From: Gemmatimonadota bacterium
Lineage (GTDB): Bacteria; Gemmatimonadota; Gemmatimonadetes; Gemmatimonadales; GWC2-71-9
Assembly (NCBI GenBank): GCA_041497135.1
Contig: JBGQFX010000011.1
Span: 5,908 to 69,907 of the forward strand
Length of the DNA stretch: 64,000 nucleotides
Reading direction: 5' to 3'
Part shown: positions 22,945-52,600 of the stretch, piece by piece
How positions within the stretch are numbered: the first letter of the stretch is position 1
Layout of the letters: every line of letters starts with the position of its first letter
The notes under the pieces: model-generated
The model's input: only the letters and a program-made list of their open reading frames with translations
Told to the model about the DNA's origin: nothing
Databases searched by the model: none
Position numbers and translations under genes: made by a program

Positions 22945-22945
22945 C

Positions 22946-26667: not shown

Positions 26668-26670
26668 GGG

Positions 26671-27909: not shown

Positions 27910-27910
27910 G

Positions 27911-29904: not shown

Positions 29905-29923
29905 GTCTCGGTTTCCTCTCCGG

Positions 29924-31411: not shown

Positions 31412-31553
31412 GGGATCCTTTGCTGATGCCTGGGAAGCTATTCTGAAGCCGTGCCCCATACGCGTGCGGCCCAGGTCAGGTTTCGGGCTGCGACGTTCGC
31501 CCTGGCTGGGGGAAAAGCTAGCCGCTACAAGGACTTATGTGGAGTGGTGGGAA

Positions 31554-32225: not shown

Positions 32226-32935
32226 GTGGCGGCGGGCGCCAGCACTCGCGTGGCGACGCGCTCCCGAATCATCTTATAGAGGCGCTCCCCCTTCTCGGGC
32301 GTCGCCAGGGTCGGTCGCCCCAGGGAGCCGGGCGAGAGGGCTGGCAACGGGCCGGTGAGGCCGCGCACATGGCGTCCTTCCGCCGGAGGGACGAAGTCCC
32401 GGGCCTGGTCCATGCGGACCAGCTCCGGCGCCAGGTAAAGTAGTAGGGACGTATCGAACTCCCCGCCGTGCGTGGGCGAGTCCGAATCGAGCAGTAGATC
32501 TTCCACGTCGAGGGCGAAGACGTCGACCGTGAACACCCGGGCCCGAGTCGTCCGCAGCGTGCAGAGCGCTTCCTGGTGGGGATCGTGGCCGTGGGCGGTG
32601 AGGATGATGAACTGGTCCACGCCGGCTTCCTCCCAGCTGCCGAGCAGATCGTTCATCCAGCGGTGCAGGGTCTTGCGTCGTACCGAGGCGTTGCCGGGGA
32701 ACGGACGCCGGGTGGCGGTGTTGACGCCGTACTCGACGGTCGGCGCGCGCAACACCTGGAATTCGGCGGAGAGATCGTCGGCGAGGCGCTCGACGATGAT
32801 GGTGTCACACCCCAACGGCAGGTGCGGACCGTGCTGCTCGCAGGTGCCGACGGGAATGAGCAGACGCGGATCCCGTGCGAGGTGCAAGCGGATGTCTTCG
32901 GGAACCAGGAGCTTCAGCTGCAGCGGCGCGCTCAT
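32222..32935 (-). CDS. Creatininase-family amidohydrolase
   Basis: LIPVGTCEQHGPHLPLGCDTII matches the family motif PvGs.EqHGpHLPlgtD, and later ..ILTAHGHD.. and ..HGGEFDTSLLLYL.. also fit. I chose the Met at 32935; the ORF opens at 32986. Confidence 0.8.
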   Translation of the reverse strand: MSAPLQLKLLVPEDIRLHLARDPRLLIPVGTCEQHGPHLPLGCDTIIVERLADDLSAEFQVLRAPTVEYGVNTATRRPFPGNASVRRKTLHRWMNDLLGSWEEAGVDQFIILTAHGHDPHQEALCTLRTTRARVFTVDVFALDVEDLLLDSDSPTHGGEFDTSLLLYLAPELVRMDQARDFVPPAEGRHVRGLTGPLPALSPGSLGRPTLATPEKGERLYKMIRERVATRVLAPAAT

Positions 32936-33103
32936 CCGATAGTCGCGGGCGTCCTCGCCGCGCTGGCGGCGGCCGAATGGCTGCACGGGCTGGGGGCGGG
33001 CTGGTCGTGGCTCGCGGGCGCGGCCGGGCTCGCCGCGGCGGCGACGGCGCTCGCGACTCGTCCGTGGCGACCGGCCACCCTGTTCGCGGGCGGTGCGAGC
33101 CTG

Positions 33104-36100
33104 GTGCTCGGGCTCGTGCTGGTTGTCGGTGCCCGGGATGTGCGCCGGGTGGAGTGCTGCTGGGCTGCGCTACGCGAAGCCCGCGTCACGGCGGCGTCGA
33201 GCTCGCTCGAAGCGACCTTGGCCGACGCGGTAGCGCTGGCGCGACGCCTCGCGGAGCGGGGCGCGACCGCCGCGGAATTGCCGCCGGGCGCGGCATTCGA
33301 CCAGCTGGCCTCGGCGGTTGCGACGACACGTCCCGCGGCGGAACACGGAGTGATCGTGCTCGATGCCGACGGCGCGCCGTACGCCTGGGCCGGCCGGCAC
33401 CGGGCGATCCCCGTGGTCGACACGACGGAATTGCGCGCGGTCATCACCCCATTCTACGTCACGCTCGAGGCCCGGCGCCAGGCGCCGGCGGGCCGCGCCG
33501 CCGTCGGCTCCGTACTGCTCGACGCGGCGCCCGCGGTGGCGGACCGTGGCGGCGCCCTGTCGGTCGTGTTCGGACACGCCCATGGCGTCGAGCTGCGCTT
33601 CGCGGCCCCCGGCGTCGCGCCGCATGACTCCGATGAGTTCGAGTTCTGTGCCGCCACCTGCGACGCGAGTCCGGTCCTGTTCACGGTGCGACCGCGTCCG
33701 CCGTCCCAGGGTGACGCCAAGCTTGCCGTGCTGGCGCGGGTCGCCGGGAGCGCCGGCGTGATGCTCGCTGTCGCGCTGGCGCTGTTGCTCATCGCCGCGC
33801 CGCCCGGCCGCGGGCGGTGGCTGGTCGTGGCGATGACGGCGTGGGCCGCGGCTCGAGCGTTCTTCGGACCCGCGGTGCCGCCGGCAGCGCTGTTTTCGCC
33901 CGCCACGTTTTACCGGCCGTTGCTGCGCGATTTCAGCGCGTCGGCCGGCGCGCTGCTCGCCATCGCCGTGCTGGGGCTGCTCGTGGCGGCCTCGGTGTGG
34001 CGGCGTGGCTCGCCGCGACGGTGGTGGAACGTCGTGATCGCCGCCGCGTTGCTCGTCTACGCGCCGTATCTCGTGCGCTACCTCGGGCGCGGCATCGCCC
34101 CTCCTGCCGCCGGCGTGAGCTTCGGCCTGTGGATGTCCTGGGAGACGGCGCTCGCCGCGGCGAGCATGATGGTCGTGCTCCTCGCCGCGGCCCTGGTGCG
34201 CGGCCCGGTCGAGCCCACGCGAGTGCCGTGGACCATCGCCGCTTCGTGTGTCTGGGCGGGACTTGCCGGGGCGGTGGGGCTGTGGTTGTGGCAGCCCTCG
34301 GGTGCGTGGCCCGAGTGGTACACATTCTTGTGGCTGCCGGCATTGGCGGGCGTGATCGTCCCCGCTCCGCGGCGCTGGGCCTTGCTCGGGATCGCGGTCG
34401 TCGCGGGCTCGGCGGCCGGCCTCGTGACCTGGGGCGCCGCGCTGGAAGGACGAGTCCAGCTGGCAGTCCGCGATGCGCAGCGGCTCGGAAGTGATCCCGA
34501 TCCGCTGGCGGTGGCGGAGTTGGAGCGTCTGGGCCGGCAGGTGCAGCGCGGTCCGGTTCCTTCAACCGCCGCGGACCTGTACGTACTGTGGCGCGAGTCG
34601 CCGCTCGCCACGCTGGACTATCCCACCGTACTGCTCGCGTGGGACAGCACCGGCCGGACGCTGGCCGAGCTGCGGCTCGCGTCGCTCGATCTCCCGACTC
34701 CGCTGCTCGCGGCACTGGCGCTCGATTCCGCCTTGACGGCGCCGCGGGTGGAGCCGCTGAACCGGATTCCCGGCACCGTGTACGTGTTGGCCACGCCGCT
34801 CTCCGGTGGCGCCGTCCTGACCGTAGGTGTAGGCCCGCGGTCCCGGCTGGTACCGGCGAGCCGCGTGGCGCGCTTTCTCCGCGGCGAGCGCAGCGCGGAG
34901 CCTCCCTACGCCATTTCCTTGTCGCTGCCGACGTCGGCACCCGAGCCGACCTTCGTCCAATGGAGGCGGTCGGGATGGACCGCCCGCGGGGACCGGCGCG
35001 TCGATCTGCCCGGCGGCGTGCGCCACGTCCACCTCTCGCTCGACCTGCGCGGTCCGTGGGCGGCGCTGGTGCGCGGGATTCTGGTCGTCCTGGCCGACGT
35101 CATGTTGCTCGCCGCCGTCTGGGTCTTGAGTCGGCTCGTAGCCGGTGGATGGGCGCCTCGGGCGCCGTCGTTGCCGCGTGCTTTGGCGAGCTACCGCGGT
35201 CGATTGACCATGGCCCTGGCGGCGTTCTTCATCGCCCCGGTGCTCGCCTTCGCGCTGTCCAACTTCGCCCGGCTCGGTGATTCGGCGCGGGCCAGCGGAG
35301 ATCTGCTCATCCGGCAGACGCTGCGCGACGCGGTGGCGTCGGCCGGGGAAACGGGGCCCGGCGGCGTGGGCGCGCTCGCCGCGATGGTCACCGATTTGGG
35401 GCGGCGTCTCGACGCCGACCTGTGGGCTTACCGGGGTGGGCGGCTCGCCGGCACGAGCGCCGCGGTGCTCGCGGAGCTGGCCCTCGTGGATCCGTTGCTG
35501 GAGCCGCGAGTGCAGCGACGTCTGGCGTACGAGGACGAGCTGGAGTTGACGGTCGATGATCGCACGGCGGGTCGGCCCACCCGGGTCGGGTATCGGGTGG
35601 CGGAGGCCGGCTCGCCGCGTGATGTAGTGGTGCTCGCCGCGCCACAGCTGCTCGACGATGAGGCGGTTCGTCGCCAGCAGGAGGATCTCGGGCTGGCGCT
35701 GATCCTCGCGACTCTGGTGGGGTTGATCGCCGCGGGCGCGTTGGCGGGCGTCGTGGCGCGCACACTGGCGCAGCCCGTGGCGGTGCTGCGGGAGGCCGCG
35801 CTGGCCGTGGGGCAGGGCGCCGTTCCGCCGCCGTTCCCGGCGCACGTACCGGCGGAGTTTGTGCCGGTGCTCACTGCGTTCGAGCGCATGGTGCGCGACG
35901 TACGCCGCAGCCAGGCGGCGCTCGAGGAGTCGCGGCGGCGCACGGCGCAGGTGCTCGCGAACGTGGCCACCGGCGTCGTGGCCGTGGACGACGGGTTGCG
36001 CGTGACGATCGCGAACCCGCGCGCAGAAGATCTGCTCGGCGCTCGTCTGGAGCCTGGAGACATCGTGGCCGGCGCCACGGCCCCGGACTGGACCCCGGTC

Positions 36101-36952
36101 TGGGAGGCCGTGCGGGCGTTTATCGCGTCGCAGGGGACCGAAATCGTCGAGCGCGAGTTCGCGATCCATGGGCGCGACATTCGCGTGCAGCTCGCTCCCC
36201 TGGGGGAGGGCGCATCACGCGACGGGTGCGTCGTGGCCCTGGACGACACGACCGCCATGGCGCGGGCGTCCCGCGTCCTGGCCTGGGGCGAGATGGCGCG
36301 GCAGGTCGCCCACGAGATCAAGAATCCGCTCACGCCGATCCGGCTCGGCATCCAGCATCTGGAGCGGGTCCACGGCGCCGGGCCACGCGCCGACTTCGAC
36401 CGGACGCTGCGGGACACGGCGCAGCGCATTCTCGCCGAGATCGACCGCCTCGACACCATCGCGCGCGCGTTCTCGCGCTTCGGGGCGCCGATGGAAAGCC
36501 AGGCGGCCCTCGAGGCGGTGGACCTGCATGCGTTGGCGCGGGATGTGGTGCAGCTGTACGCGCTGGGTGACGAGCCGGGCGGAGCGCGGGTGGTGCTGAC
36601 AGGGGAATCGGGACGTGCGGCGCAGGCCCGCCGGGACGAGGTCAAGGAGGTGCTCGTCAACCTGGTGGAGAACGCCCGCATCGCGGGGGCGCGGGAAGTG
36701 CGCGTCGGGATCGACGCGGACGGACTCCGGCTCACCGTCAGCGACGATGGCAGCGGCATTCCCCCCGACGCGCAAGGGCGCGTATTCGAGCCGATGTTCT
36801 CGACCCGGTCGAGTGGATCGGGGCTGGGGCTGGCGATCGCCCGGCGGCTGGTCGAGAGCTGGGGGGGGACAATCACCCTCACCAGCGCGCTGGGGAGCGG
36901 AACGACGGTCCAGCTGGTGCTGCGGGCGGCCTCAAAGACTGGTGCGGCGTGA
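33104..36952 (+). CDS. Sensor histidine kinase, NtrY-like (large polytopic N-terminus + HAMP + PAS + HisKA + HATPase_c)
   Basis: H-box EMARQVAHEIKNPLTPIRLGIQHLE (~36290-36365). N-box LVNLVENA. G-boxes DDGSGIP and RSSGSGLGLAIARRLVE. A PAS-like segment VLANVATGVVAVDDGLRVTIANPRAEDLLG follows a HAMP-like linker. Many hydrophobic segments occur earlier. The start is uncertain: the frame is open from 32576, but that part overlaps the divergent creatininase gene. The first canonical start after it is the GTG at 33104. Confidence 0.8.
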   Translation: MLGLVLVVGARDVRRVECCWAALREARVTAASSSLEATLADAVALARRLAERGATAAELPPGAAFDQLASAVATTRPAAEHGVIVLDADGAPYAWAGRHRAIPVVDTTELRAVITPFYVTLEARRQAPAGRAAVGSVLLDAAPAVADRGGALSVVFGHAHGVELRFAAPGVAPHDSDEFEFCAATCDASPVLFTVRPRPPSQGDAKLAVLARVAGSAGVMLAVALALLLIAAPPGRGRWLVVAMTAWAAARAFFGPAVPPAALFSPATFYRPLLRDFSASAGALLAIAVLGLLVAASVWRRGSPRRWWNVVIAAALLVYAPYLVRYLGRGIAPPAAGVSFGLWMSWETALAAASMMVVLLAAALVRGPVEPTRVPWTIAASCVWAGLAGAVGLWLWQPSGAWPEWYTFLWLPALAGVIVPAPRRWALLGIAVVAGSAAGLVTWGAALEGRVQLAVRDAQRLGSDPDPLAVAELERLGRQVQRGPVPSTAADLYVLWRESPLATLDYPTVLLAWDSTGRTLAELRLASLDLPTPLLAALALDSALTAPRVEPLNRIPGTVYVLATPLSGGAVLTVGVGPRSRLVPASRVARFLRGERSAEPPYAISLSLPTSAPEPTFVQWRRSGWTARGDRRVDLPGGVRHVHLSLDLRGPWAALVRGILVVLADVMLLAAVWVLSRLVAGGWAPRAPSLPRALASYRGRLTMALAAFFIAPVLAFALSNFARLGDSARASGDLLIRQTLRDAVASAGETGPGGVGALAAMVTDLGRRLDADLWAYRGGRLAGTSAAVLAELALVDPLLEPRVQRRLAYEDELELTVDDRTAGRPTRVGYRVAEAGSPRDVVVLAAPQLLDDEAVRRQQEDLGLALILATLVGLIAAGALAGVVARTLAQPVAVLREAALAVGQGAVPPPFPAHVPAEFVPVLTAFERMVRDVRRSQAALEESRRRTAQVLANVATGVVAVDDGLRVTIANPRAEDLLGARLEPGDIVAGATAPDWTPVWEAVRAFIASQGTEIVEREFAIHGRDIRVQLAPLGEGASRDGCVVALDDTTAMARASRVLAWGEMARQVAHEIKNPLTPIRLGIQHLERVHGAGPRADFDRTLRDTAQRILAEIDRLDTIARAFSRFGAPMESQAALEAVDLHALARDVVQLYALGDEPGGARVVLTGESGRAAQARRDEVKEVLVNLVENARIAGAREVRVGIDADGLRLTVSDDGSGIPPDAQGRVFEPMFSTRSSGSGLGLAIARRLVESWGGTITLTSALGSGTTVQLVLRAASKTGAA

Positions 36953-36980: not shown

Positions 36981-38342
36981 ATGCCACCATTCTCCCGTAC
37001 TCGCCCGAGGTGGATCGTGCGGCACTGGTTTGTGCTCCTGCTGTCGGCCGGCTGGCTGGTGGGCCTCGCCCCCGTGGCGCGGGCTCAATTGTCGTTCGAC
37101 GCGCGCCGCACGGGGATGGCGGGAGTCAGCCTGAGCCGAGACGGGGCGCTGGGCCGGTTCAATCCGGCTTACCCCGCCGTGCCGGCCCGGCAGGGACGCG
37201 GCGCCAAGGTCACGATTCCAGTTCCGTTGGGCCTGTTCCAGGTGCTCAAGGACAGCGCCGCGTTCGACTTCAACAAATCGTACTTCAATCCAATCGCGCT
37301 GGCGAACTACATTCTGCACCCGCCGCTCTTCTACGAGATCAAGAAGACCCCAACTCCGACCAACGACGTCGAGTTCACGATCGGCCGCGATTCGCTCATC
37401 GTGGACCTGGGCTCGGCGGCGCAGCTCGTGCCCACCGACCGGTTCGGCTTCGGCGGGGAGAGCCGCCTGATGGACATCGGGCTCACGATCAAGGGCGTGC
37501 ATATCGGCGCGCTGGTGTGGGAGGACCACGAGGTCGGCTTCCAACTGGGCGATACGCTGCTCCGGTTCCTCCGGCAGAAGGCGCCCGCCGATACCAATAC
37601 GACTTACGCGAGCGACGGGGACGCGATTGCGCAAGCCGGGTTCGCCCCGACGCTGGGCTACGCCGGCCGCGTATGGGGCGACAGCACACGCGGAATCTAC
37701 GTGGGAGCCGCGGCGCACTACTATCTCGGCGTCGCCTACGGGTCCGTCGTCGGCACAGCCGGCTTCGTCACCGGCGACACCCTGTTCGCCGGGTCCAATC
37801 CAGTGACGCCCACCGTGGATGCGCTCGTCACGTACTCGAAGGCCGGTCATTCGTTCGGGCATGGCTTCGGCGCGGACGTCGGGATCGTGTACGTGACCGG
37901 TCCGGTGGAGGTTGGGTTCGGGGTCAACGACATCGGCGCGACGCTGACCTGGCCCGATACCCGCGTCGACCGCGATACCTTCGACACCGCCGCGAACAAC
38001 TTCGGCTCGAGCCTGGTGGCCAACCACGTGCCGAGCAAGACAAAGCTGCCCGTAACCTACGTCGCGAACGCGTCACTTGAGCTGGGCACCAACACGACTG
38101 CCGGCACTACGATTCTCAACAATGGCCGTGGCACCACGATCCAGATCGGGGTGGAGCAGCGCGTCGGGCCGCTGGCGCTCCGGGGCGGCGTGGCGCGCGA
38201 CCAGCGCAAGCGCGTTCAGCTCGGCTGGGGCACCGGTGTCCGGTTCGGGGCATTCGGTCTCGACGTGGGTTTCGCGACGCATTCCGGCTCACTGTCCACG
38301 GCCCGTGGGATCACCATGGCCACCTCGATTTCCATCTACTGA
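36981..38342 (+). CDS. Outer-membrane beta-barrel protein, FadL/PorV/UPF0164-like (unverified)
   Basis: The ATG at 36981 gives the signal MPPFSRTRPRWIVRHWFVLLLSAGWLVGLAPVARAQ. It has alternating beta-strand-like segments and the C-terminal beta-signal GITMATSISIY (terminal aromatic). The N-terminal ARRTGMAGVSLS..FNPAY resembles, from memory, the signature of PorV/UPF0164-type barrels. Confidence 0.7.
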   Translation: MPPFSRTRPRWIVRHWFVLLLSAGWLVGLAPVARAQLSFDARRTGMAGVSLSRDGALGRFNPAYPAVPARQGRGAKVTIPVPLGLFQVLKDSAAFDFNKSYFNPIALANYILHPPLFYEIKKTPTPTNDVEFTIGRDSLIVDLGSAAQLVPTDRFGFGGESRLMDIGLTIKGVHIGALVWEDHEVGFQLGDTLLRFLRQKAPADTNTTYASDGDAIAQAGFAPTLGYAGRVWGDSTRGIYVGAAAHYYLGVAYGSVVGTAGFVTGDTLFAGSNPVTPTVDALVTYSKAGHSFGHGFGADVGIVYVTGPVEVGFGVNDIGATLTWPDTRVDRDTFDTAANNFGSSLVANHVPSKTKLPVTYVANASLELGTNTTAGTTILNNGRGTTIQIGVEQRVGPLALRGGVARDQRKRVQLGWGTGVRFGAFGLDVGFATHSGSLSTARGITMATSISIY

Positions 38343-38893
38343 TGCGCACGGGAGCGTCGATGTCGGTCACCCGGCTCACTTGGCTCGCGGCCACCGCGGC
38401 GGGCGTGCTGATCCTCGGGTGCGGGGAAGGCCGCGCCATCTTTAATGTGGACGTGTACAGCTTTCTCAAGGACGCGGGGAATGATTCCGTCCCCTACGTC
38501 GCGCCGTCGCCGTTCGACACGACCCCGCCTCAGCCGGTCAACCTATTGCCGATTGGACTGGGCAGCTCGGTTGTGGAGTCCGTGACCGTGAGCGGCAGTG
38601 TCGACTTCGTGAATCAGGCGGGGAACGGCACGGTCGGTCTCGAGTTCTACATCGACACCGTTCCCGCCGTGTATGGGGGCACGCCGGCCTTCTCCGTGAC
38701 GCCGGTCGCCGTCACGCCGGGGAACACCAGCCCGGCCCCTTTCCAAGGGGACTTGGCTGCCCTGTCCCGTCAGTTGTTTCTGAGCCAGACGGTGTACGTC
38801 GGGATGCGGGCTGTGGCCTCCGGGTTGGCGGTGGGGAAAGCGCGGCTCAGCGCGCTGCGCCTGCGCATCGTGATTCAAGACAAGATCTTCTAG
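38342..38893 (+). CDS. Small lipoprotein, unknown function
   Basis: 183 aa. Lipobox AAGVLILGC. The start overlaps the barrel gene stop (TGATG). The C-terminus LSALRLRIVIQDKIF has an alternating hydrophobic pattern and a terminal Phe. Confidence 0.65.
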   Translation: MRTGASMSVTRLTWLAATAAGVLILGCGEGRAIFNVDVYSFLKDAGNDSVPYVAPSPFDTTPPQPVNLLPIGLGSSVVESVTVSGSVDFVNQAGNGTVGLEFYIDTVPAVYGGTPAFSVTPVAVTPGNTSPAPFQGDLAALSRQLFLSQTVYVGMRAVASGLAVGKARLSALRLRIVIQDKIF

Positions 38894-38917
38894 CCGAACC
38901 GCGCCGTTCGTGACACA

Positions 38918-41900
38918 TTGCCTGCGCTCATGAGATCCTCAGGCCGTCTCGGTCTGCGCGCGGCGCTGCTTTCCGCGACGCTCGTCACCTGTACCAGCGA
39001 TCATCCGACCGGCCCCGGCCGCTTCGGGCGAGGGGTTCTGGCGATCCGTCCGGTGCTGGCGTCGCCGGTGGATCTCGCGGCCTTCGGGCTCATTGTCGAC
39101 CGTCTGCGCGTGGTCGCCGTCCGTCCGGTGGCGGATACGGCGCTCGACACCACGGTCGTCTTCAGTCCCGATTCGGCGTCGTTGCACCTCTCGCTGTCCG
39201 TGTTGCTCCACGCAGCGGTGGAGACGTTCGTCATCCACCTGGAGCTGCGGGCGGGCTCCGTGGTCCTCTTTTCGGGCGTCGATACGGCGCAGGTCTCGAG
39301 TGGCCCGCCGGATACGTCGTCCGCCGCGACCATCCCGCTCAGCTACGTCGGGCCGGGTTCGGGACTCACGAAATTGAGTATCGGGCCGCGCGATTCGGTC
39401 CTCACGCTCCGCGACTCGCTGCGCTTCACGGCCGCCGCCGAATCACTCGGCGTCTCGATCGCTTCCTTCTATGTGCACTGGTCCACCAGCGACACCGTAA
39501 ACGCCCCGATCAACGGGGCCGGCCTGCTGCGCGCTCCCAATGCGCGCGGCGGTGTGGTCGTGCGGGCGGTGACCCCGAACGGCGTGAAGGATTCGACCCG
39601 GGTCACATTCGTACCGGTACCGGCGGCTGTCGCGGCGTTCGCGGGCTCAGGCCAGTCGGGTACGGTCGGCACCCGGCTTCCCGTGCCGCTGCGGGCCCGA
39701 GTGAAAGCGAGCGACTCACTCGGCGTGCAGGGCGTCCCGGTGCGGTTCCAGGCGCTGAGCGGCGGAAGCGTAAAGGACTCGGTGGTACTGACCGACAGCC
39801 TCGGCTTCGCCGCAGACACGGCGACTCTCGACACCCTCGCCGGCGTGAAGAGTTACCGGGCCTCGGTTGGCGCGTTGACGGCGACCTTCAGCGCGACTGC
39901 CACGGCGGGCGCCATCACGGCGGCTCAGTCCGTGGTCACCGTGTCCAGCGCCACCGTCGCTTCGGGCACCGGCGTCACGCTGACGCTGCGCGGCAAGGAC
40001 CAGTTCGGCAACAACCTCACGACCGGCGGTGCGACCGTCCTGTTCAGTGCCACCGGTGGGACGAGCTCCGGTAACATCGCGCCCAGCCCGGCGACGGATA
40101 ACAACGACGGTACCTACACCGCAACCTTCACCGGACTCCTCGTCGGATCGGCCACGACGATCGGCGCGACGATCAACGGCACCGCCGTCTCGACGGCGTT
40201 GCCCACGATCACCGTCACCGCGGGTGCGATCTCGCCGCTCACGTCTCTCGTCACGACCTCGAGCGGCACCGTGTCGTCCGGCGCAACCGCGACGTTGACC
40301 CTCCAGGCCAAGGACTCGGCCGGCAATTCGCTGGCCACGGGCGGGGCGACGGTCGTCTTCTCCCGTGCCGGCGGCACCAGCACCGGCAGCATCGTGCCCA
40401 GCCCGGCGACCGACAACAGCAACGGCACCTACACCGCGACCTTCACCGCCGATTCCGCCGGCACGGCGACCACGATCCGGGCCACGATCGGCGGTGTGCT
40501 GGCCACTTCTACGACGCCGATCACGGTCGTGCCGGGCAACACCACCGCCGCCCAGTCGGTGATCACGGTATTGCCCGATACGATTCAGGCGGGCGGCGCG
40601 TCGACGCTGAAGCTCCAGGCGAAGGATGGGGCGGGCAACAACATCACGACCGGCGGGCTGACCGTCGTGTTCAGCCATTCCGGCGGGACGAGCACCGGCA
40701 CCATCGCGCCGAGCCCCGCGACGGACAACAACAACGGTACGTACACGGCAACGTTTACCGGTCAGACGGCCGGGACGGCGACCACGATCCACGCCACGAT
40801 CAACGCCGTGCAGGTGACGTCCACGCTGCCGACCATCACCGTCACCTCCAGCGGCATCTCGGCGGTGACGTCCGTGGTCACCAGCACCGATTCACTATTG
40901 CCGGTGAGCGGCGTGGCCACGCTGACGCTTCAGGCGAAGGATGGCTCGGGCAACGTGATCACCAGCGGCGGCGCGGCCGTCGTGTTTACGCAGTCGGGTG
41001 GCACCAGCACTGGTAATTTCAGCATCACAACCGATCACAACGATGGCACGTACACCGCGACGTTCACCGCGGTGAATGCCGGCACGCCCACCCAGATCGG
41101 CGCGACGATCAACGGCACGGCCGTGACGTCAGTGCCGCTGCCCACGATCCGCGTCTTCTCCTCGGTCCATACGGCCGATATCCTGGCCGATTCGACTTGG
41201 ACTGCGGCGGCGAGCCCGCACATCGTCAGCACCTACCTCCGTATTCGCAACGGTGCGACGCTCACCATTCAACCGGGCGCCACGGTGAAGTTCGATGCCG
41301 GGGCCGGGCTGCAGGTCGGCGACACGGCATCGAACCAGGCGGGCCGGCTGAACATGGACGGCGCCGCGCTCGGCATCATCCTCACGGCCAATACCGCGAC
41401 GCCCGTACCGGGCTTCTGGCGCGGCATCGAGGTACAGCGTGCCCTTGGTGGTCCGGCCTGGCAGAATACGACGATCGAATACGGCGGCGGCACACGGTCG
41501 CCGTTCGGCGGCGTCCTCGCCGAGGCCTGCGTCCTGATCGTGAATCGCTCCGGGGCCGCGCTCGACTTGGACAGCCTGCACATTCGCAAGTGCGTGCACG
41601 CCGCGATCCATCATTTCGGCGGCACGGCGCATGTGCACCGCACCACGATCGACTCGGTCACGGGCTCGGGCATCCACGTCGACTTTGACGCGCAGCTCGA
41701 GCTCGATTCGACCACGATCCGCGGATCGGGGCAGGAGGGGCTGTTCTTCGCCAGCCTGACCTCGCGCCTGCTGCCCTCGAGTGGCAACCGGGTCTTGGGC
41801 AGCGCGGGAACGGGCATTCATCTGAACGCATTCCAATTGCCCGGACTGTTGAAGCAAGATTCGATCGTGGGAAACGGAGTCAACTTCGGCACCAACTTCA

Positions 41901-44900
41901 TCGAGGTGCAGGGGGGGCGGCCCGACTCGACCGTCGCCGCGTTCACGATCTTCGCCCAGCCCCAGCTGATCGGCTTGAACGGCTACCTGATTCGCCAGTT
42001 CGGTGGCCTGCTCGATATCGGCCGAGTCGGTGGGCAGGCGGTGACGCTCGATTCGAATGTGGTGCTGCGGTTCGAAGGACAGACGGGCCTCCGGATCGGC
42101 GACAGCGCGGGGACGCGCAGCGGCACGATCCGCTCGCTCGCCACGAACACGCTGAACCGGGCGGCTTTGACCGCGTCGAGTGCGGGACTCCCGGGCGCCT
42201 GGGTCGGGCTCGAAATCGGCCGGTTATCCGGGCCCGACACGCTGCGGTTCATCCGGATCGACTACGCTGGTGATTCTATTCCGAATTACACTCGCCATCG
42301 CGCCGGCCTGTATATCCGCAACCCGGTAGCGGTGCCATTCGTGCTGGATCGTGCGAACATCACCACGAGCGGTTCCACCGGCTCGGTCGCCAATTCGGCG
42401 GGCATCGGGATCGCGGGAACCGGCGGCACCGAGATCCGCAACAGCGTGCTGTTGCAAAACGTGGGCTTCGGGATCGCGATCCAGGACAAAGGCTTCAAGA
42501 TCGTGAACGACACGATCCAGAATCACACGATCGGCATCTTCGCGTACATGGAAGGCGGCACACAGCTTACCGCCGCCGATTCCATTTCGGGGAACACGTT
42601 CCCCGGCACGCAATACGCGGTGTCACTCACGGCTGCGGCACTGCGGGCCTTGCAGGGCAACGCGATTACCACGGCCGCCTCGGACACGCTGCTCTTCGGC
42701 GGTGGGTTGCTCACCACCAGTGTGACGCTGCCCAATTTCCCGGGCTACGTGTGGCGGGCCACCAAGACGACGACCATCGATGCGGGTGCTACGTTCACAC
42801 TGGCTCCGGGAGATACGATCGCGTTCGACAGCTCGGCGGGCATCCAGGTTGGTGGGCTCTCTCCCGCCGCCCTCGCAGCCGACGGGTCGACGGGAAAGAT
42901 CCTGCTCACGGCCAGCGGCCCCTTGCCGCAGGGCTGGCACGGCGTCGACTTCCACCTGATGTCCGGCTCGGGTTCGACGACCAATAACGTGTTCCGCCAC
43001 GTCGACGTCGATCGCGCCGGGTACTACGTCCCCTGCTTCGGCGAGTGCTACCCGATCCCGTTCGGGGCGCTGCGGTTCACCGATTCGATTGCGCCGACCG
43101 ACGTCGATCTGTCGATCACGGATATCATCGTGCGCCGCTCGAACTCCATCGCGCTGGACTTCCAGCGCGGCGGGACGGGAACCGTCAGTATCGCCGGCAG
43201 TCAGTTTTACGACAACAAACCCGACCCGATGATCCAGACGCGGTTTGGACAGGGGAGCCATTTATCGATTTCGGGATCGGATTTGTATCACTACCGCGGG
43301 CGGGTGATCCAGAGTGCCTATCGGGGCGGCACAGCAGACTCGGTGAACCTCGTGAACGATTGGTGGGGCGACCTCGCCGGTCCTGACACCGGGTACTTCT
43401 ACTACCCTGACAGTCTGGGGCGCGCCAGCCTGAACCAGAACGCGGCCCTGGTCCTTCCGTTCGCGAGCGCCCCGTTCTTCCCGGTTGGCCCGGGCACCGG
43501 CGTTGTGCCGACGCGCGACAGCCTGCTGAGCTCGGTCAACATGGGCGACTCGATCGGGATCTATGCTCGTGTGATCGAGGCGAACGGCCGTGGCGTGGGG
43601 GCGCAGACGGTATCCTGGACGCCGATTCCGAGCCTTGCCAGCTTACTCGCGCCGAGCAGCTCCCAGAGCGACATCGGTGGCCGAGTGAACGTGGGGTGGA
43701 AGTTCACCAACACGGCCGGGCGGCTGACGGCACACGCTACCGGTGGTGGGGGCTTCACCGACTACTTCATCGACGTGATTCCGGGGTTGACAACCGCGGT
43801 CAGTTGGAACGTGCTGAACAAACCGGTCTCGGAAGGGACGGCGACCGGACCCAGGGCGATCACCTTTACCAGCACTAATCGTCGAGGGGTAATCGTCACG
43901 CACGCCCACGACGGCTTCAACAACGCCACGCACATGTCGTCGTACTGCTTCGATGTCGTCGGGGGGACCTGCTACACCTACCCGGTCCCGGGTGCGATCG
44001 ACTCGGTCCACACGAGTGGTGGAGTTGACGGAGACACGATCTTTTTCCATTCGAACGTGACGACGCCCTCACCGTTCGTGCTACGCGCGACGTACACGCA
44101 GGTGTCGGGCCAATTCCAAGACTCGGTCGTGATCACCATGAGCGCGGTCGCTGCCGGCGTGAAGATCGACCGCGATCCGTACACCTTTAACGGCATCCAG
44201 ACTGCCCCGGACACGGCGGTGTTCAACTCGATCTGCCCGAGCGGCCAGCCGAACTTCTATTGCCAGGTCGAATACCATGCGTTTGTCGTCGATTCCGGGC
44301 TCACCCCGTTCGGCAACCAGAACGCCCAGTTCCAGTGGACCCTGCTGCCGCCCGCGACCCCACCGGTCACGTTTACCACGCGCGGGGCTCCGGCCAATGA
44401 TTCGGCGACGGTGACCGCGCAGTCGAACGGCTTCGTCCGTTTCGTCGTGAAGGACATCAGCGCGAACAACTTTGGCTCCGACACGATGCCCATTCTCGTC
44501 AATCAGGTGCCGGGTTACATCTACGTGAGCCCGGACACGATCAGCGTGTCTGTGGGCGGGACGACAACCTTCAAGGCGACGGTCACCGACTTCGGCGGCG
44601 ATACGATGCCCACGGTGCCGATCCACTGGCGGCCCGACAACCCGTTCAATCCGCACCTCAAGATCACCGATACCACGGTGGCGCATCAGGCGGTCGTGCG
44701 TCTGGACAGCACGCCGTTCGGCAGGGAGTACGTGACGGCATTTTCGCCACGCGCGCCGGGCGACACGGCGTACGGCTATGCGCAGGTGATCAACCCGGTG
44801 CTGAAACCGATCAACGTCGACGTGCAGCCGTGGGCCATCGCGGCGAACTCGCAGACCCATGCCGTGTACGCGGGACACCAGGGAGGCCAACTGTACCGGA

Positions 44901-45721
44901 TCGACGGGACCACCGGCACGGCTACTGACTCGACCAACACCGGGTTGACAGTGGCCGCGGTCGCCGTGAACCTGGTCACGAACCGGGTGTACGCCGCCAC
45001 CGACTCGGGCGTGGCGGTGCTCGACGGAACGACGCTCTCGCGCGTCGCTATGGTGGCCGTCGGCAAGAACGATCAAGGGGTGCAGAACCGCCAGGGGCTG
45101 ACGGTCGATTCGATCAACAACCGGATCTACGTCACTGTGGTGGCGCCGGGCGCGTCGCCACTGCCCGTGCTGCGCCGCATCGACGGCATCTCCTTCTCGG
45201 CGACAAACGACGTGGCGCTGCCGGATACCGGCAACGGCGCCGTGTTCAACCCGAACGACGGCTTCGTGTATGTGACGATTCCCGACAGCAACCTGGTCGT
45301 GGCGGTGAATCCGGCGACCAAGACCATCGCGAAGCGGATTCCGGTTGGGAGCGAGCCGTTCGCCATCGCCTTGAACCCGGTCACGAACCGGTTGTACGTG
45401 ATCGACCAGATCTTCACGTCCAACTACCCGTTCAACCTCTACGTCATCGACGCGGCGGCTGGAGCCGTGGTGGCGACGATTCCAATGGGGTTCCAAACGG
45501 CGAGCCTGGCGGTCGACGCCGTGAACAACCGCGTCTACGTCGGAGCGAGGTACAATGGGTACGTGTCCGTCATCGATGGCGCGACGGACTTCTTCCTGGG
45601 CACGGTGAACGCCACCGGGTTCTACTCCGATCAGGAGCTCGGGGTGGCTTTCGACGCGGCCAACGGGCACGTCTACACCGCCAACTACTCCTCGGCCTCG
45701 ATCACGCGCCTGAAGTACTGA
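38918..45721 (+). CDS. Giant (2,267 aa) modular surface lipoprotein: Ig-like repeats + parallel beta-helix + Ig-like region + YVTN beta-propeller
   Basis: Lipobox LLSATLVTC (alternative ATG start at 38930). A Big_2-like domain is followed by four ~104-aa invasin/Big_1-like repeats. Pectate-lyase-type beta-helix turns span ~41.2-43.3 kb (IRNGATLTIQPGATVKFDAGAGLQVGD; NVGFGIAIQDKGFKIVNDTIQNHTIGIF). The C-terminus carries YVTN-type blades (NRVYAATDSGVAVLDG, NRIYVTV, NRLYVIDQ, NRVYVGARYNGYVSVIDG). Confidence 0.85.
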   Translation: MPALMRSSGRLGLRAALLSATLVTCTSDHPTGPGRFGRGVLAIRPVLASPVDLAAFGLIVDRLRVVAVRPVADTALDTTVVFSPDSASLHLSLSVLLHAAVETFVIHLELRAGSVVLFSGVDTAQVSSGPPDTSSAATIPLSYVGPGSGLTKLSIGPRDSVLTLRDSLRFTAAAESLGVSIASFYVHWSTSDTVNAPINGAGLLRAPNARGGVVVRAVTPNGVKDSTRVTFVPVPAAVAAFAGSGQSGTVGTRLPVPLRARVKASDSLGVQGVPVRFQALSGGSVKDSVVLTDSLGFAADTATLDTLAGVKSYRASVGALTATFSATATAGAITAAQSVVTVSSATVASGTGVTLTLRGKDQFGNNLTTGGATVLFSATGGTSSGNIAPSPATDNNDGTYTATFTGLLVGSATTIGATINGTAVSTALPTITVTAGAISPLTSLVTTSSGTVSSGATATLTLQAKDSAGNSLATGGATVVFSRAGGTSTGSIVPSPATDNSNGTYTATFTADSAGTATTIRATIGGVLATSTTPITVVPGNTTAAQSVITVLPDTIQAGGASTLKLQAKDGAGNNITTGGLTVVFSHSGGTSTGTIAPSPATDNNNGTYTATFTGQTAGTATTIHATINAVQVTSTLPTITVTSSGISAVTSVVTSTDSLLPVSGVATLTLQAKDGSGNVITSGGAAVVFTQSGGTSTGNFSITTDHNDGTYTATFTAVNAGTPTQIGATINGTAVTSVPLPTIRVFSSVHTADILADSTWTAAASPHIVSTYLRIRNGATLTIQPGATVKFDAGAGLQVGDTASNQAGRLNMDGAALGIILTANTATPVPGFWRGIEVQRALGGPAWQNTTIEYGGGTRSPFGGVLAEACVLIVNRSGAALDLDSLHIRKCVHAAIHHFGGTAHVHRTTIDSVTGSGIHVDFDAQLELDSTTIRGSGQEGLFFASLTSRLLPSSGNRVLGSAGTGIHLNAFQLPGLLKQDSIVGNGVNFGTNFIEVQGGRPDSTVAAFTIFAQPQLIGLNGYLIRQFGGLLDIGRVGGQAVTLDSNVVLRFEGQTGLRIGDSAGTRSGTIRSLATNTLNRAALTASSAGLPGAWVGLEIGRLSGPDTLRFIRIDYAGDSIPNYTRHRAGLYIRNPVAVPFVLDRANITTSGSTGSVANSAGIGIAGTGGTEIRNSVLLQNVGFGIAIQDKGFKIVNDTIQNHTIGIFAYMEGGTQLTAADSISGNTFPGTQYAVSLTAAALRALQGNAITTAASDTLLFGGGLLTTSVTLPNFPGYVWRATKTTTIDAGATFTLAPGDTIAFDSSAGIQVGGLSPAALAADGSTGKILLTASGPLPQGWHGVDFHLMSGSGSTTNNVFRHVDVDRAGYYVPCFGECYPIPFGALRFTDSIAPTDVDLSITDIIVRRSNSIALDFQRGGTGTVSIAGSQFYDNKPDPMIQTRFGQGSHLSISGSDLYHYRGRVIQSAYRGGTADSVNLVNDWWGDLAGPDTGYFYYPDSLGRASLNQNAALVLPFASAPFFPVGPGTGVVPTRDSLLSSVNMGDSIGIYARVIEANGRGVGAQTVSWTPIPSLASLLAPSSSQSDIGGRVNVGWKFTNTAGRLTAHATGGGGFTDYFIDVIPGLTTAVSWNVLNKPVSEGTATGPRAITFTSTNRRGVIVTHAHDGFNNATHMSSYCFDVVGGTCYTYPVPGAIDSVHTSGGVDGDTIFFHSNVTTPSPFVLRATYTQVSGQFQDSVVITMSAVAAGVKIDRDPYTFNGIQTAPDTAVFNSICPSGQPNFYCQVEYHAFVVDSGLTPFGNQNAQFQWTLLPPATPPVTFTTRGAPANDSATVTAQSNGFVRFVVKDISANNFGSDTMPILVNQVPGYIYVSPDTISVSVGGTTTFKATVTDFGGDTMPTVPIHWRPDNPFNPHLKITDTTVAHQAVVRLDSTPFGREYVTAFSPRAPGDTAYGYAQVINPVLKPINVDVQPWAIAANSQTHAVYAGHQGGQLYRIDGTTGTATDSTNTGLTVAAVAVNLVTNRVYAATDSGVAVLDGTTLSRVAMVAVGKNDQGVQNRQGLTVDSINNRIYVTVVAPGASPLPVLRRIDGISFSATNDVALPDTGNGAVFNPNDGFVYVTIPDSNLVVAVNPATKTIAKRIPVGSEPFAIALNPVTNRLYVIDQIFTSNYPFNLYVIDAAAGAVVATIPMGFQTASLAVDAVNNRVYVGARYNGYVSVIDGATDFFLGTVNATGFYSDQELGVAFDAANGHVYTANYSSASITRLKY
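39905..41158 (+). repeat. Four tandem ~313-bp (104-105 aa) Ig-like coding repeats inside the giant gene
   Basis: Units start at 39905, 40220, 40532 and 40847. The shared core is ..TLTL(Q/R)(A/G)KD..GN.(L/I)T(T/S)GGA.V.FS..GGTS(T/S)G.I.PSPATDN.(D/N)GTYTATFT....G.AT.I.ATI.G. Confidence 0.9.
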
Positions 45722-45741: not shown

Positions 45742-46962
45742 ATGCACCGCCGCAGAACCGTCACCGTCGCCGTGGGCGGCGTGAAGGTGGGCTCGGCCCA
45801 CCCGATCGTCGTCCAGTCGATGACCAACACCGACACCGCCGACGTCGACGGCACCGTCGCCCAGGTGCGGGCCCTGCATGAGGCCGGGTCCGAGTTGGTC
45901 CGCGTCACCGTCAACAACGACGCCGCGGCCCAGGCGGTCCCCGCCATCGTCGCCCAGGTGGACGTCCCGGTCATCGGCGATTTCCACTACAACGGTCACC
46001 TGCTGCTCACCAAGTACCCGCAGTGCGCCGGGGCGCTCGCCAAGTACCGCATCAATCCGGGCAATGTCGGCGCCAAGCGTCGCGACGACAACTTCCGCAC
46101 CATCGTCCAGGTCGCGATCGACCGGGGCAAGCCGGTCCGCATCGGCGTCAACTGGGGCAGTCTCGATCAGCAGTTGCTCACCGAGATGATGGACGCGAAC
46201 GCGAAGGCCGCCGAGTCGCGCGACGCGCGTGACGTCACCATGGACGCCATGGTCGAAAGCGCGCTCCGCTCGGCGGCGCTCGCCGAGGAGACCGGCCTGC
46301 CGCACGATCGCATCATTCTCTCCGCCAAAGTGTCGGGCGTGCAGGACCTGGTGGATGTGTACCGCCAGCTCGCGCGTCGGGCCGACTACCCGCTCCATCT
46401 GGGCCTCACCGAAGCCGGCATGGGGAGCAAGGGCGTCGTCGCCAGCAGCGCCGCGCTCGCGATTCTGCTGCAGGAGGGAATCGGCGACACGATCCGCGTC
46501 TCCCTGACCCCGCGCCCCTCCGGGGATCGAACTGAGGAGGTTCAGGTCGCCCAACAGATTCTGCAGTCGCTCGGGATTCGCAGCTTCAGTCCGCAAGTCA
46601 CCGCATGCCCCGGTTGCGGACGAACCACGTCCACGTTTTTCCAGCAAATGGCGGAGCAGATCCAGGAGTACCTGCGGGTCCGGCGGCCCGAATGGCAGCG
46701 GCGCTATTCTGGATCGGAGGAGCTGCGCGTGGCGGTGATGGGGTGTGTCGTCAACGGCCCCGGCGAATCCAAGCACGCCGACATCGGCATTTCGTTGCCG
46801 GGCACGTCCGAGGAGCCGAAGGCCCCGGTCTACATCGATGGGCGGTTACGCGTGACCCTGAAGGGTGAGACGATCGTCGCCGATTTCCTGCGGCTACTGG
46901 AGGAGTACGTGGCGACGCGCTGGAGCGGTCAACCGGCGCCGGCGTCCGCCTCGACCGGATGA
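45742..46962 (+). CDS. ispG: 4-hydroxy-3-methylbut-2-en-1-yl diphosphate synthase (flavodoxin) IspG/GcpE
   Basis: [55 protein letters not shown], and the Fe-S cysteines ..[10 protein letters not shown].. and ..[11 protein letters not shown].. Confidence 0.95.
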
Positions 46963-49673: not shown

Positions 49674-52600
49674 ATGAGACTCTCCGAAACCTCCATTCGC
49701 CGCCCCGTCCTGGCCAGCATGCTGTCGGCCGCCCTGGTGCTGTTCGGGGTCATCGGGTACACCCGCTTGTCGGTACGCGAGCTCCCGGACATCGATCCCC
49801 CGATCATCTCGGTCTCCACGGTGCTGCCCGGCGCGAACGCGCAGGTCGTGGAGACCGCGGTCACCGACGTCCTCGAGGAGGAGCTGTCTACGATCCAGGG
49901 ACTGCGCACGCTCTCGAGCTCGTCCTCGGAGCAGAGCAGCAACATCACCCTGGAGTTCACCCTCGACCGGCCCGTCGATGTCGCCGCGCAAGACGTACGC
50001 GACAAGGTGTCGCGTGTCCGCGGGCGGCTGCCGGTGGACGTACTCGAGCCGGTGATCGCCAAGCAGCAGGCCGACGCGCAGCCGTTCTTCTGGCTGGCGT
50101 TGAGTAGCTCGAACTATGATCTGATGCAGCTCTCCGACGTCGCCGACCGCCTGGTCAAGGCTCGGCTGCAGAGCCTGCCGGGCGTCGGGAGCGCTGGGGT
50201 CTATGGGGAGCGGCGCTATGCGATGCGGGTGTGGGTGCAGCCCGAGCAGCTGTCGGCGCGCAGCCTCACCGTACAGGACGTGGAAGGCGCGATCACCTCG
50301 CGCAACGTCGAGATCCCCGCCGGCCGCATCGAATCGACGCGGCGCGAATTCTCGGTTCGCTCGCTGGGCGAGCTGAAGACCCCGCAGGAGTTCGGCGAGC
50401 TGGTGGTGGCGAGCCAGGGGACTCAGGTCGTCAAGCTCAAGGATGTGGCCAACGTCGAGCTGGGGCCGGAGGACGATCGTTCCATCTTCCGTTTCAACGG
50501 AATTCCCGCCGTCGCTATCGGCGTGGTCCGGCAATCCAAGGCGAACCTCATCCAGGTGGCCCAGCGCATTCGCGAGGCGCTCCCCGGCATCCAGCAGACC
50601 CTGCCCCCGGGTGTGAAGCTCTTAATTGCCTTCGACGGGTCGGTATTCGTCACGCATTCGATCAAGGACGCGCGCCTGACACTGTTCATCGCGGCGATCC
50701 TTGTGGTGCTGATCATTTTCGTCTTTCTGCGCAACCTCCGCGCCACGATCATCCCGGGGCTCGCGATCCCGACGTCGATCATCACGGTGTTCGCGATCCT
50801 GTACTTCCTCGGCTTTTCGATCAACAACTTCACGTTGCTCGCGTTGACCATCGCGATCGGGATCGTGGTGGACGACGCGATCATCGTGCTCGAGAACGCG
50901 TATCGGCATCAGGAGGAGCTGAACGAGAAACCGGTGCAGGCGGCGGTCAACGGGACCAACGAGATCGGCTTCGCCGTGATCGCGACGACCATCGCGCTCG
51001 TGGCGGTGTTCACGCCTCTCGCCTTCCTGCAGGGCACGACAGGTCGGTTGTTCAACGAATTCGGCGTCGCCATGGCCGGCGCCGTGATCATTTCCGGCTT
51101 CGTGGCGCTGACCTTGACGCCGATGCTGTGCGCCAAGATCCTGCGCGTGTCGCGCGAGCACGGCCCCGTGTTCAAGGTGTTCGAGCGCGGCTTCAACGCC
51201 ATCGCCGAGCGCTACGCGACATTGCTGCGGTCCGCGCTGCGGCACCGGGTCCTCGTCGTCGTCGGGACGGGCGCGTCGGTGCTCCTGGCGGTCGTGTTGT
51301 ACAAGAACCTCAAACAGGAGCTCCTCCCGGACGACGACCGCGGGTTCTTCCTGGTGGTGTCCTCGGGGCCCGAGGGCGCGTCGCTCGACTATATGGACGG
51401 GTATGTGCGCCAGGTCGAGCAAATCATCGGCAAGACCCCCGATGTGCAGGGCTACTTCACGATCATTGGCGGATTCGCCGGGGGCGTCAACCGGTCGTTT
51501 GTCGGGGTCATCCTCAAGGATTGGAGCGAACGGCACACCACCGTCCAGCAAATGGTGGGCGGACTGTTTCCCCAGCTCTTCGGGATCGCGGGCATTCGGG
51601 CGTTCCCCTACAGCCCCGGGGCGCTCGGGTTCAGCCAGCCGATCCAGTACGTCGTGCAGAATCCGGATTTCGCGCGGCTCGCCCAGGCGATGGACACCCT
51701 GGTGCCGCGGGTGCGCGCCATCAAGGGTCTCACGAACGTGGATACAGACCTGCGCGTCAACAAGCCTGAGTTGCGCGTCACCTTCGATCGGGACCGCGCC
51801 GAGGACCTGGGCGTGCCGGTGCGCGACGTCGCGGCCGCGTTGCAGACGTTCCTCGGCGGCCGCCGGGTGAGCACGTTCACCCGCAACGACAAGCTGTACT
51901 ACGTCATGGTGCAGCTCGATCCCGCGCACCGGGCCACGCCGAGCGACATGTCGGGGATCTACCTGCGGGGAAACAACGGGCAGCTGGTCCAGCTGTCGGC
52001 GCTCGCCAAGGTCGAAGAGGGCGTGGGCCCCCGGCAGATCAATCACTTCAACCGCGTGCCCTCGTTCACGCTGTCGGCTTCGCTGATTCCACCCTTCGCC
52101 CAGGGCGAGGCGCTCGATTCGCTCGATCGGTTGGCCAAGCAAGTGCTCCCGCCGGGCAGCACGACCGCCCTGGCGGGTGATTCCCGTGAGTTCCGGGAGA
52201 GCGGTGGCGCCTTGTACTTCGCGTTCGGCATCGCCCTGCTCGTCGTGTTCATGGTGCTCGCGTCGCAGTTCGAGTCGCTGGTGCACCCGTTCACGGTGCT
52301 CCTGGCGGTGCCGCTGGCCGTGACCGGAGCGCTGGCGACCTTGCTCGTGGCCGCGCTGATGCATCGTCCCGGAGGGACCATCAATCTGTACAGCGAAATC
52401 GGCATGATTCTGCTCATCGGGCTCGTGACCAAGAACTCGATCCTGCTGGTCGAATACGCGAACCAGTTGAAGGCACGCGGTCTGGACACCGTGGCCGCCG
52501 TCATCGAAGCCGGCCGCATCCGGCTGCGTCCAATTCTCATGACGTCGGTGGCGACGATCATGGGCGCGATCCCGGTGATGATCGGACTCGGTGCGGGCTC

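Follow-up and report, generated by a model that had tools for sequence, protein, structure and literature searches.

A barrel–lipoprotein gene pair of Gemmatimonadales as a candidate docking platform for a diversifying lipoprotein, beside an optional giant adhesin-like gene

The 64-kb stretch of DNA analysed here (the window; 62–73% GC), from contig JBGQFX010000011.1 of a Gemmatimonadota bacterium, has its closest protein relatives in metagenome-assembled genomes (MAGs) of the Gemmatimonadales and carries, on its forward (+) strand, consecutive genes for an outer-membrane β-barrel, a small lipoprotein and a giant adhesin-like lipoprotein. The original prediction, made from the letters of this DNA, took the three for a surface-display module dedicated to the giant. 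We instead favour, with roughly an even chance of being right, a functional unit that consists of the barrel and the small lipoprotein, in which the barrel would dock a diversifying and probably surface-exposed lipoprotein and the giant would be an accessory.

The first gene (36981..38342, +) encodes a FadL/PorV-superfamily barrel (DUF5723) of 453 amino acids (aa) with a signal peptide, the plug motif QLSFDARRTGMAGVSLS..FNPAY and the β-signal ..SISIY. The second (38342..38893, +) encodes a jelly-roll lipoprotein of 183 aa, ~157 aa in its mature form, with the lipobox LILG-C27. The third (38918..45721, +) encodes the giant adhesin-like lipoprotein, 2,267 aa when read from a TTG codon, with a probable ATG start at 38930 and the lipobox LVT-C. 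An NtrY-like sensor histidine kinase gene (32882..36952, +) precedes them and ispG (45742..46962, +), for HMBPP synthase, follows and ends the same-strand block. The spacing between the five genes is 28, −1, 24 and 20 nucleotides (nt), and the three tightly linked open reading frames (ORFs), with the 28-nt gap, the 1-nt overlap and the 24-nt gap originally described, are thus all borne out. The G+C content at third codon positions of the five genes is 0.82–0.87, the level of the other real genes in the window. With 672 database homologues for the barrel and 96 for the small lipoprotein, these are real conserved genes and no chance ORFs. From the tight packing, co-transcription of the kinase, barrel, lipoprotein, giant and ispG genes is plausible. 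A pattern scan of the locus found no promoter-like sites and no convincing internal terminator; the terminator-like sites that it returned lie inside ORFs and occur at the level of shuffled sequence, so that the scan has no bearing on the question of an operon. Searches of the window with Rfam models and for tRNA genes gave no matches.

By sequence and by predicted fold, the 453-aa protein is an outer-membrane barrel of the FadL/PorV superfamily. Read from the sequence, its signal peptide ends with ..VARA in front of a mature QLSF, and its C-terminus is ..MATSISIY. Pfam DUF5723 (PF18990) matches residues 149–329 and passes marginally (27.9 bits against a cut-off of 26.8). An AlphaFold2 model built with 39 homologues (mean predicted local distance difference test score, pLDDT, 78.8) has ~15 long strands (14 or 16) after an N-terminal region of ~110 aa. 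Foldseek searches of the PDB with this model return CymD, TodX, FadL and BamG chains, with a probability of 1.00 and E-values of 1e-5 to 1e-4. The BamG chains, 9n2d_B, 9hjm_F and 9hiv_F, come from three Bacteroidota structures of the β-barrel assembly machinery (BAM), and 9n2d_B has the top template modelling (TM) score (0.36/0.40) among the fold matches listed. BamG is described as a member of the FadL/Toluene_X family that, compared with FadL, is extended at both termini by conserved segments (Silale et al. 2025, PMC12578637).

Sequence profiles point to a different relative. A profile of the close barrel family has no PDB matches at E≤10, whereas a broad profile of 59 members finds PorV (6h3i_F) as its sole credible relative (E=1e-3, 21 bits). 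The alignment is collinear and covers the N-terminal DAR-x2-G-[LM]-G...NPA (DARAAGLGD...WNPA in PorV) as well as the last strands; across 39 barrel sequences, D40, A41, R42, G48, N61 and A63 are invariant. Together with the DUF5723 pass, this match, obtained through the very motif that had been singled out, vindicates the proposed PorV/UPF0164-type likeness at the level of the superfamily. Of the family models suggested as a check, DUF5723 lies above its cut-off and TraF_2 occurs within the family, but the window barrel itself has no match to PorP_SprF (PF11751) in Pfam. Among the 59 diverse family members, Pfam reports DUF5723 in 18 (E≤0.01), TraF_2 in nine and PorP_SprF, weakly, in one, while Toluene_X is absent from all 59 and from the window barrel. 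Neither DUF560 (Slam) nor TPR models match the barrel in Pfam at E≤0.1. In an exhaustive profile search of 1.84 billion representatives, the barrel family came to 393 clusters at 50% identity and is therefore small. No barrel or lipoprotein paralogues and no silent allele cassettes occur elsewhere in the window.

The 183-aa protein had been called a lipoprotein, and its classical lipobox, LILGC, agrees: C27 is invariant in 63 sequences, with the pattern L-x-[GA]-C. AlphaFold2 models it as a jelly-roll sandwich (pLDDT 84.5), which begins three residues past the cysteine. The protein has no sequence match in Pfam, NCBIfam or the PDB. Among the best 50 of 1,662 Foldseek matches with E≤10 we find generic BcsB CBD, carbohydrate-binding module (CBM) families 4/6, viral capsids and TNF-like lectins, none of which reaches a TM-score of 0.5, and no chain of BamH (9n2d, 9hiv, 9hjm). 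Likewise, a profile of the 63 sequences run against the PDB does not reach BamH and returns only adenovirus fibre knobs at chance level (E 0.06–0.13). BamH is the surface lipoprotein whose lipidated N-terminal tail and CBM-like domain are bound by BamG in Bacteroidota, where both are core BAM subunits (PMC12611786, PMC12578637). The constant parts of the small lipoprotein are the first strand past the cysteine (CGEGRAIFNVDVYSF) and the C-terminus (LRLRIVIQDKIF), and the remainder is hypervariable. Conservation is 0.84 in the first strand, high in the GLGSSVVDS segment and the C-terminal strand, and lowest, at 0.36, in strands 117–137. The post-cysteine motif reads ..IFNVDVYSF in the window protein and NVD.xSF in the family.

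The two genes travel together. A barrel-seeded genome scan yielded a best set of 80 species-level loci, all from Gemmatimonadota MAGs, and the window proteins were compared by tblastn with these 80 and five earlier loci (numbered with the prefix L). Kinase, barrel and small lipoprotein follow one another in the same order and on the same strand wherever the contig has room. The kinase is upstream of the barrel in all such loci except L071 and L081, and practically every one of the 80+ Gemmatimonadales loci with room has the small lipoprotein directly after the barrel. Synteny of the upstream flank persists in relatives whose barrel identity is as low as 55%.

Within this conserved setting the small lipoprotein diverges on its own. 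The barrels of L009 and L001 are 89% identical and their small lipoproteins 41%; between the window and L007 the values are 87% and 38%. The window and L009, in turn, share 80% identity in the barrel and 84% in the small lipoprotein, and in the more distant L046 the barrel is 58% and the small lipoprotein 56% identical to those of the window. Clustered at 55% identity across 73 species, the small lipoproteins fall into 19 clusters and the barrels into two. Between the window, L001, L007 and L009, sliding-window DNA identity is 0.78–0.92 in the kinase, barrel and giant genes, drops to 0.39–0.55 exactly over the small ORF and then recovers. The small lipoprotein gene is thus a sharply bounded island of divergence, and like alleles are common to distantly related species. 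This looks like a set of old, discrete alleles that homologous recombination in the conserved flanks has moved around. The simplest cause of such a pattern in a lipoprotein of the outer membrane is an external selective agent, and we infer surface exposure on this ground.

The giant gene behaves differently from the pair. Sixty-six loci have enough downstream sequence to be informative, and in 41 of them ispG directly follows the small lipoprotein (≤600 nt), in 23 a giant-family gene does and in two something else. The nearest relative, L006 (barrel 90%, kinase 94% and small lipoprotein 87% identical), has no giant gene. Conversely, a metagenome scan seeded on the giant's N-terminal module showed that 56 of 73 informative loci have the small lipoprotein directly upstream, together with the barrel if the contig reaches that far, and that in 17 the gene has an unrelated context. 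Nor does the giant's presence follow the allele type of the lipoprotein: among loci of types A and B some have it and some lack it, and L007, the lone type C locus, has it. The linkage of the pair to the giant is frequent but facultative in both directions.

These counts bear on the reading in which the barrel, helped by the small lipoprotein, is devoted to exporting or anchoring the giant, as in PorP/SprF–SprB or Slam. Several features would suit it: the giant, when present, stands directly after the pair (in the 23 species loci and the 56 metagenome loci), the gaps of −1, 24 and 20 nt are tight, and a constant lipobox and module of ~330–470 aa with a variable remainder is the pattern expected of an anchor plus passenger. 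However, the pair occurs without the giant in 41/66 species, in the closest relative and in other phyla; 17/73 giant-family genes sit in unrelated contexts; the giant does not follow the lipoprotein allele type; and the giant has no T9SS (type 9 secretion system) C-terminal domain of type A or B, just as the barrel has no PorP_SprF or DUF560 match. We consider such a dedicated exporter improbable, and the claim of the original prediction that the module is dedicated to the giant does not hold: with the giant optional, and the pair found alone in distant lineages, the conserved linkage to giant-protein genes whose lack had been named as evidence to the contrary is largely missing. A giant adhesin gene beside a barrel gene does not make the barrel dedicated to the adhesin. 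The giant may instead be an optional client of the pair.

The giant itself conforms in part to what had been described. The four invasin-like immunoglobulin (Ig) repeats (Invasin_D3/Big_1; PDB FdeC 4e9l, E=4e-18) and the C-terminal YVTN/YncE-type propeller (PDB 1l0q, a Methanosarcina S-layer protein, E=2e-16) were recovered, but Big_2 is not reported by Pfam and the β-helix signal is weak (21.3 bits, where the cut-off is 25.9). No PDB sequence matches the 750 aa in the middle of the protein. The statement that the giant has no recognisable T9SS C-terminal domain was confirmed, no type A or B model matching at E≤0.1 in Pfam or NCBIfam. Its likelier start, ATG 38930, four codons past the TTG, gives an N-terminus that reads MRSSGRLGLRAALLSATLVTC. 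The lipobox is LVTC, and L[AV]TC followed by CxxD..GPGRGG..YLA[IV]RP is kept in 25+ homologues. Members of the giant family range from ~570 to >3,150 aa and have only the lipobox and the first ~330–470 aa in common with the window protein. The window holds no other copy of this N-terminal module, which rules out that the module is a generic stalk common to the lipoproteins of the window.

Two further observations concern lipoprotein-like N-termini and Ig-rich proteins in the window. A threonine at position −1 is unusual in a lipobox, yet it recurs often (LTC, ATC, VTC) among the N-termini at 2691, 3981, 7633, 9770 and 38930. In the same lipoprotein-like N-termini an aspartate stands no more than three residues past the cysteine (CSD, CTD, CRD, CAD, CTSD). 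The threonine lipobox with its near aspartate may be a lineage-specific signal for sorting or surface export. An ORF of 684 aa (61214..63268, +) with Big_2, Big_1 and LVIVD repeats is of the same Ig-plus-propeller surface type as the giant, without its N-terminal module.

The pair is not confined to the Gemmatimonadales. We examined the context of nine distant barrels, 21–35% identical to the window barrel, and in four of them (L089, L088, L172 and Ocepr_0993 of Oceanithermus profundus) a lipoprotein of 189–199 aa lies 2–25 nt past the barrel, with no kinase, ispG or giant nearby. All four partner lipoproteins carry [VL]x[VL]D[VI]xSF shortly past the cysteine (..ILNLDILSF, ..LDVGSF, ..VNVDILSF and ..VADVDVLSF), and the L089 partner is a clear homologue, scoring 80 bits against the hidden Markov model of the small-lipoprotein family. 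The Oceanithermus locus (L090; CP002361.1, 1011918-1023243) belongs to a cultured member of the Deinococcota, and in it Ocepr_0993, named a DUF5723 domain-containing protein in UniProt, is followed after 9 nt by a lipoprotein of 195 aa. A search seeded on the L089-type barrel returned 10 proteins, all from MAGs, as are the homologues that protein searches gave for the window barrel and small lipoprotein, and cluster look-ups gave no cultured Gemmatimonadota. Judged from these sequences, the pair is older than the Gemmatimonadales locus, and the barrel family is found in Deinococcota and Acidobacteria, that is, outside the Fibrobacterota–Chlorobiota–Bacteroidota (FCB) group.

The same distribution speaks to two further readings. 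One takes the barrel for a T9SS component, a PorV/PorQ paralogue that shuttles or anchors T9SS cargo. PorV is the sole solved sequence relative of the barrel-family profile, NCBIfam PorV2 gives a weak match (E=0.08), and Gemmatimonadota fall within the FCB group, where the presence of SprA is implied by Liu et al. (PMC12611786). Yet with 11.8 bits the barrel stays far below the PorV2 cut-off of 325, so that the curated model fails, and the PorV model of NCBIfam does not match at all. The 64 kb of the window contain no T9SS genes, a sorting domain is missing from the C-terminus of the giant, and none of the family models matched the small lipoprotein. Members of the barrel family also occur in Oceanithermus, and Deinococcota, to our knowledge, have no T9SS. 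On the missing model matches, sorting domains and T9SS neighbours, and on the occurrence in Oceanithermus, we reject a role in T9SS as very improbable.

The other makes the barrel a FadL-type uptake channel for a hydrophobic or unusual substrate, with the lipoprotein as a cap that captures it and the kinase sensing or regulating the process. Transporters (CymD, TodX and FadL) are indeed the best fold matches of the barrel, which retains the N-terminal plug, G-x-G and NPA with N61 and A63 invariant; the lipoprotein fold resembles a carbohydrate-binding module; and the kinase adjoins in nearly all Gemmatimonadales loci. The N-terminal motif, NPA included, is however also present in PorV, which is no small-molecule transporter, and outside the Gemmatimonadales the pair always occurs without the kinase. 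Catabolic genes are not linked to the locus, its neighbours being ispG, efflux pumps and a creatininase-family gene, and allelic replacement is not obviously expected of a ligand-binding cap. We give this reading little credence.

We return to the docking of the small lipoprotein by the barrel, which we infer from the recurrent association of the two genes and the way in which conservation is distributed over the lipoprotein. The barrel would be the platform in the membrane on which the small jelly-roll lipoprotein docks, gripped by its constant parts, namely the strand that begins three residues past the lipidated cysteine (..IFNVDVYSF) and probably the C-terminal strand. The variable body would then face outward on the cell surface, under diversifying or frequency-dependent selection, and whole alleles would be exchanged by recombination in the conserved flanking genes. 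In the Gemmatimonadales, the pair would be fixed in one operon with the large membrane kinase and ispG. The giant would be an accessory surface adhesin that is often in the operon and may anchor on the pair, while being dispensable for it.

Several points weigh against this proposal. Contact between barrel and lipoprotein is a prediction from monomer models and sequence, and the allele pattern is the sole basis for surface exposure. No column of the barrel alignment co-varies with the lipoprotein allele type; such a lack of a co-evolution signal would be expected of binding through the invariant strands alone, yet it gives no positive support. The fold-match TM-scores are low (0.3–0.4 for the barrel, <0.5 for the small lipoprotein), so that the structural analogies are coarse. 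The post-cysteine CGEG is unlike the acidic Bacteroidota lipoprotein export signal of PMC12578637. In the distant lineages, five of the nine barrels, one of them from an Acidobacteria MAG, have no adjoining lipoprotein, and homology of the Oceanithermus partner (16 bits, weak) and of the L088 partner (not significant) to the small lipoprotein rests on position, size and motif.

A bolder form of the proposal, which we advance tentatively and think unlikely, is that the pair constitutes a new cross-phylum system for surface-lipoprotein display, with carriers in Gemmatimonadota, in Deinococcota and in other uncultured lineages. Exporting the lipoprotein, holding it by its first β-strand, or both would be the task of the barrel, phage or predator pressure would keep the body polymorphic, and the giant adhesin and other larger lipoproteins could be extra clients. 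Such a system, if real, would be a third solution beside Slam/type 11 secretion and the BamGH canopy of Bacteroidota. How lipoproteins are placed on the surface in diderms outside the Proteobacteria is still largely open, and it was only recently (2025) that FadL-like barrels, those of the BAM complex in the FCB group, proved to be platforms for surface lipoproteins. The locus offers a compact two-gene candidate platform that is conserved across an order and recurs in a non-FCB phylum, and the alleles of its lipoprotein bear what appears to be the mark of selection from outside the cell. Oceanithermus profundus is a tractable, cultured carrier of the pair.

The genes on either side of the trio were analysed as well. 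Translated from GTG 32882, the sole in-frame start that fits the homologue lengths of 1342–1369 aa, the kinase has ~1,356 aa, the longest ORF running from 32576. HAMP, PAS, HisKA and HATPase_c domains (Pfam) make up its last ~400 aa, the first ~950 aa have no known domain family in Pfam or NCBIfam, and a hydropathy scan counts ~10–12 hydrophobic segments. No response regulator adjoins it. A reading similar to the Rcs system, in which an outer-membrane lipoprotein sensor signals to the kinase, was suggested by the adjacency of the kinase gene and was set aside, the pair having no kinase in other lineages. The assignment of ispG is firm (Pfam GcpE, E=9e-120; NCBIfam ispG, 478 bits). Efflux systems flank the locus, with MacB/ABC/MFP/OEP genes upstream (20332..31459, −) and AcrB–OEP–MFP genes downstream (49674..55149, +), and these regions include several MacB/FtsX-type ORFs. 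Further away, a TPR–CHAT protein (57..2678) is followed by a same-strand run (2691..11689, +) of several lipoprotein-like ORFs that combine RCC1-repeat propellers with Big_2, a PKD-domain protein and two ORFs without a Pfam family, which looks like a surface-protein cluster beside a CHAT protease-like gene.

The likeliest alternative to docking as we propose it holds that the pair is the BamG–BamH of Gemmatimonadota and serves the biogenesis of outer-membrane proteins or surface lipoproteins, with the giant a mere neighbour or a client. Liu et al. (2025, PMC12611786) report that six of the seven FCB phyla have BamG and BamH, and the two genes are neighbours in most FCB phyla other than Bacteroidota; adjacent pairs are listed for Gemmatimonas aurantiaca (GAU_1453/GAU_1452), Ignavibacterium, Salinibacter, Fibrobacter and Caldithrix (PMC12611786). 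The procedure by which homologues were called is unstated in the methods text of Liu et al. (PMC12611786) and in the preprint, and we found no mention in the literature of the locus tags that neighbour GAU_1453/GAU_1452 or of ispG in G. aurantiaca.

Besides these published pairs, the presence of BamG chains among the barrel's fold matches, with 9n2d_B at the top of the TM-scores listed, argues for this identity. So does the CBM-like jelly roll with its N-terminus most conserved, which parallels the barrel-proximal CBM-type domain and bound tail of BamH, and so does the universality of the pair in the order, in a probable operon with an essential gene. Against it, Toluene_X matches neither the window barrel nor the 59 family members, and neither barrel profile reaches BamG in the PDB at E≤10, whereas the broad one reaches PorV. 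The NPA of the barrel stands at mature positions 26–28, compared with 33–35 in FadL (from the names of FadL mutants), and the protein ends at its last strand; BamG-type terminal extensions are therefore not apparent. BamH is unmatched by the lipoprotein profile and absent from the 50 fold matches listed, and the barrel family reaches Deinococcota and Acidobacteria, outside the FCB group. We regard identity with BamG–BamH as unlikely, though worth serious consideration. If the pair is the BamG/BamH of Gemmatimonadota, the allele pattern is new information on a BAM subunit; if it is not, the pair is an uncharacterised envelope module with a clear candidate for a binding motif.

Compared with the known systems, the barrel resembles the transporters FadL, TodX and CymD in fold (best Foldseek E-values, 1e-5) and in its N-terminal plug and NPA. 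It differs from them in its TM-scores of 0.32–0.37, in a pre-barrel N-terminal region that is much longer (~110 aa), in the lack of Toluene_X and of a catabolic context and in its obligatory lipoprotein partner. Slam, of type 11 secretion, is a DUF560 barrel that has a TPR domain in the periplasm and is encoded beside variable surface lipoproteins such as TbpB. As there, the window has a barrel gene beside lipoprotein genes, and the lipoprotein is strain-variable while the barrel is conserved, which would make Slam a working analogy if the barrel exports the lipoprotein; unlike Slam, the window barrel has neither a DUF560 match nor a periplasmic TPR domain. The arrangement of a small FadL-like barrel gene just upstream of a giant, repetitive adhesin-like gene recalls PorP/SprF–SprB, but the window barrel lacks PF11751, the cargo would be a lipoprotein without a type-B domain and the linkage is facultative.

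With PorV and PorQ, the likeness is both in sequence, since PorV has the N-terminal DAR-x2-G-[LM]-G...NPA and the C-terminal strands in common with the barrel, and in the proposed task, a FadL-like barrel that anchors a surface protein (PorV/PorQ carry PorU/PorZ and cargo). The window barrel nevertheless fails the PorV/PorV2 models, has as its partner a lipoprotein that is not T9SS-secreted, has beside it neither a C-terminal sorting domain on the giant nor any T9SS genes, and belongs to a family that also occurs outside the FCB group. BamG–BamH offers the same combination of a ~14-stranded FadL-superfamily barrel beside a lipoprotein, a pair universally retained in its clade. The lipoproteins share a CBM-like β-sandwich, whose N-terminal end is barrel-engaged in BamH, and poor conservation of both the contact surfaces and the exposed ones. 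The barrels differ by sequence, that of the window being DUF5723/PorV-like and BamG a Toluene_X protein, and the lipoproteins differ in build, a single domain of ~157 aa here and an elongated, two-domain protein in the case of BamH as published. FadL-like barrels that hold surface proteins are established in Bacteroidota by BamG–BamH, PorV and PorQ (PMC12611786, PMC12578637), and the docking that we propose for the barrel and its small lipoprotein would be analogous to that of BamG–BamH or PorQ–PorZ.

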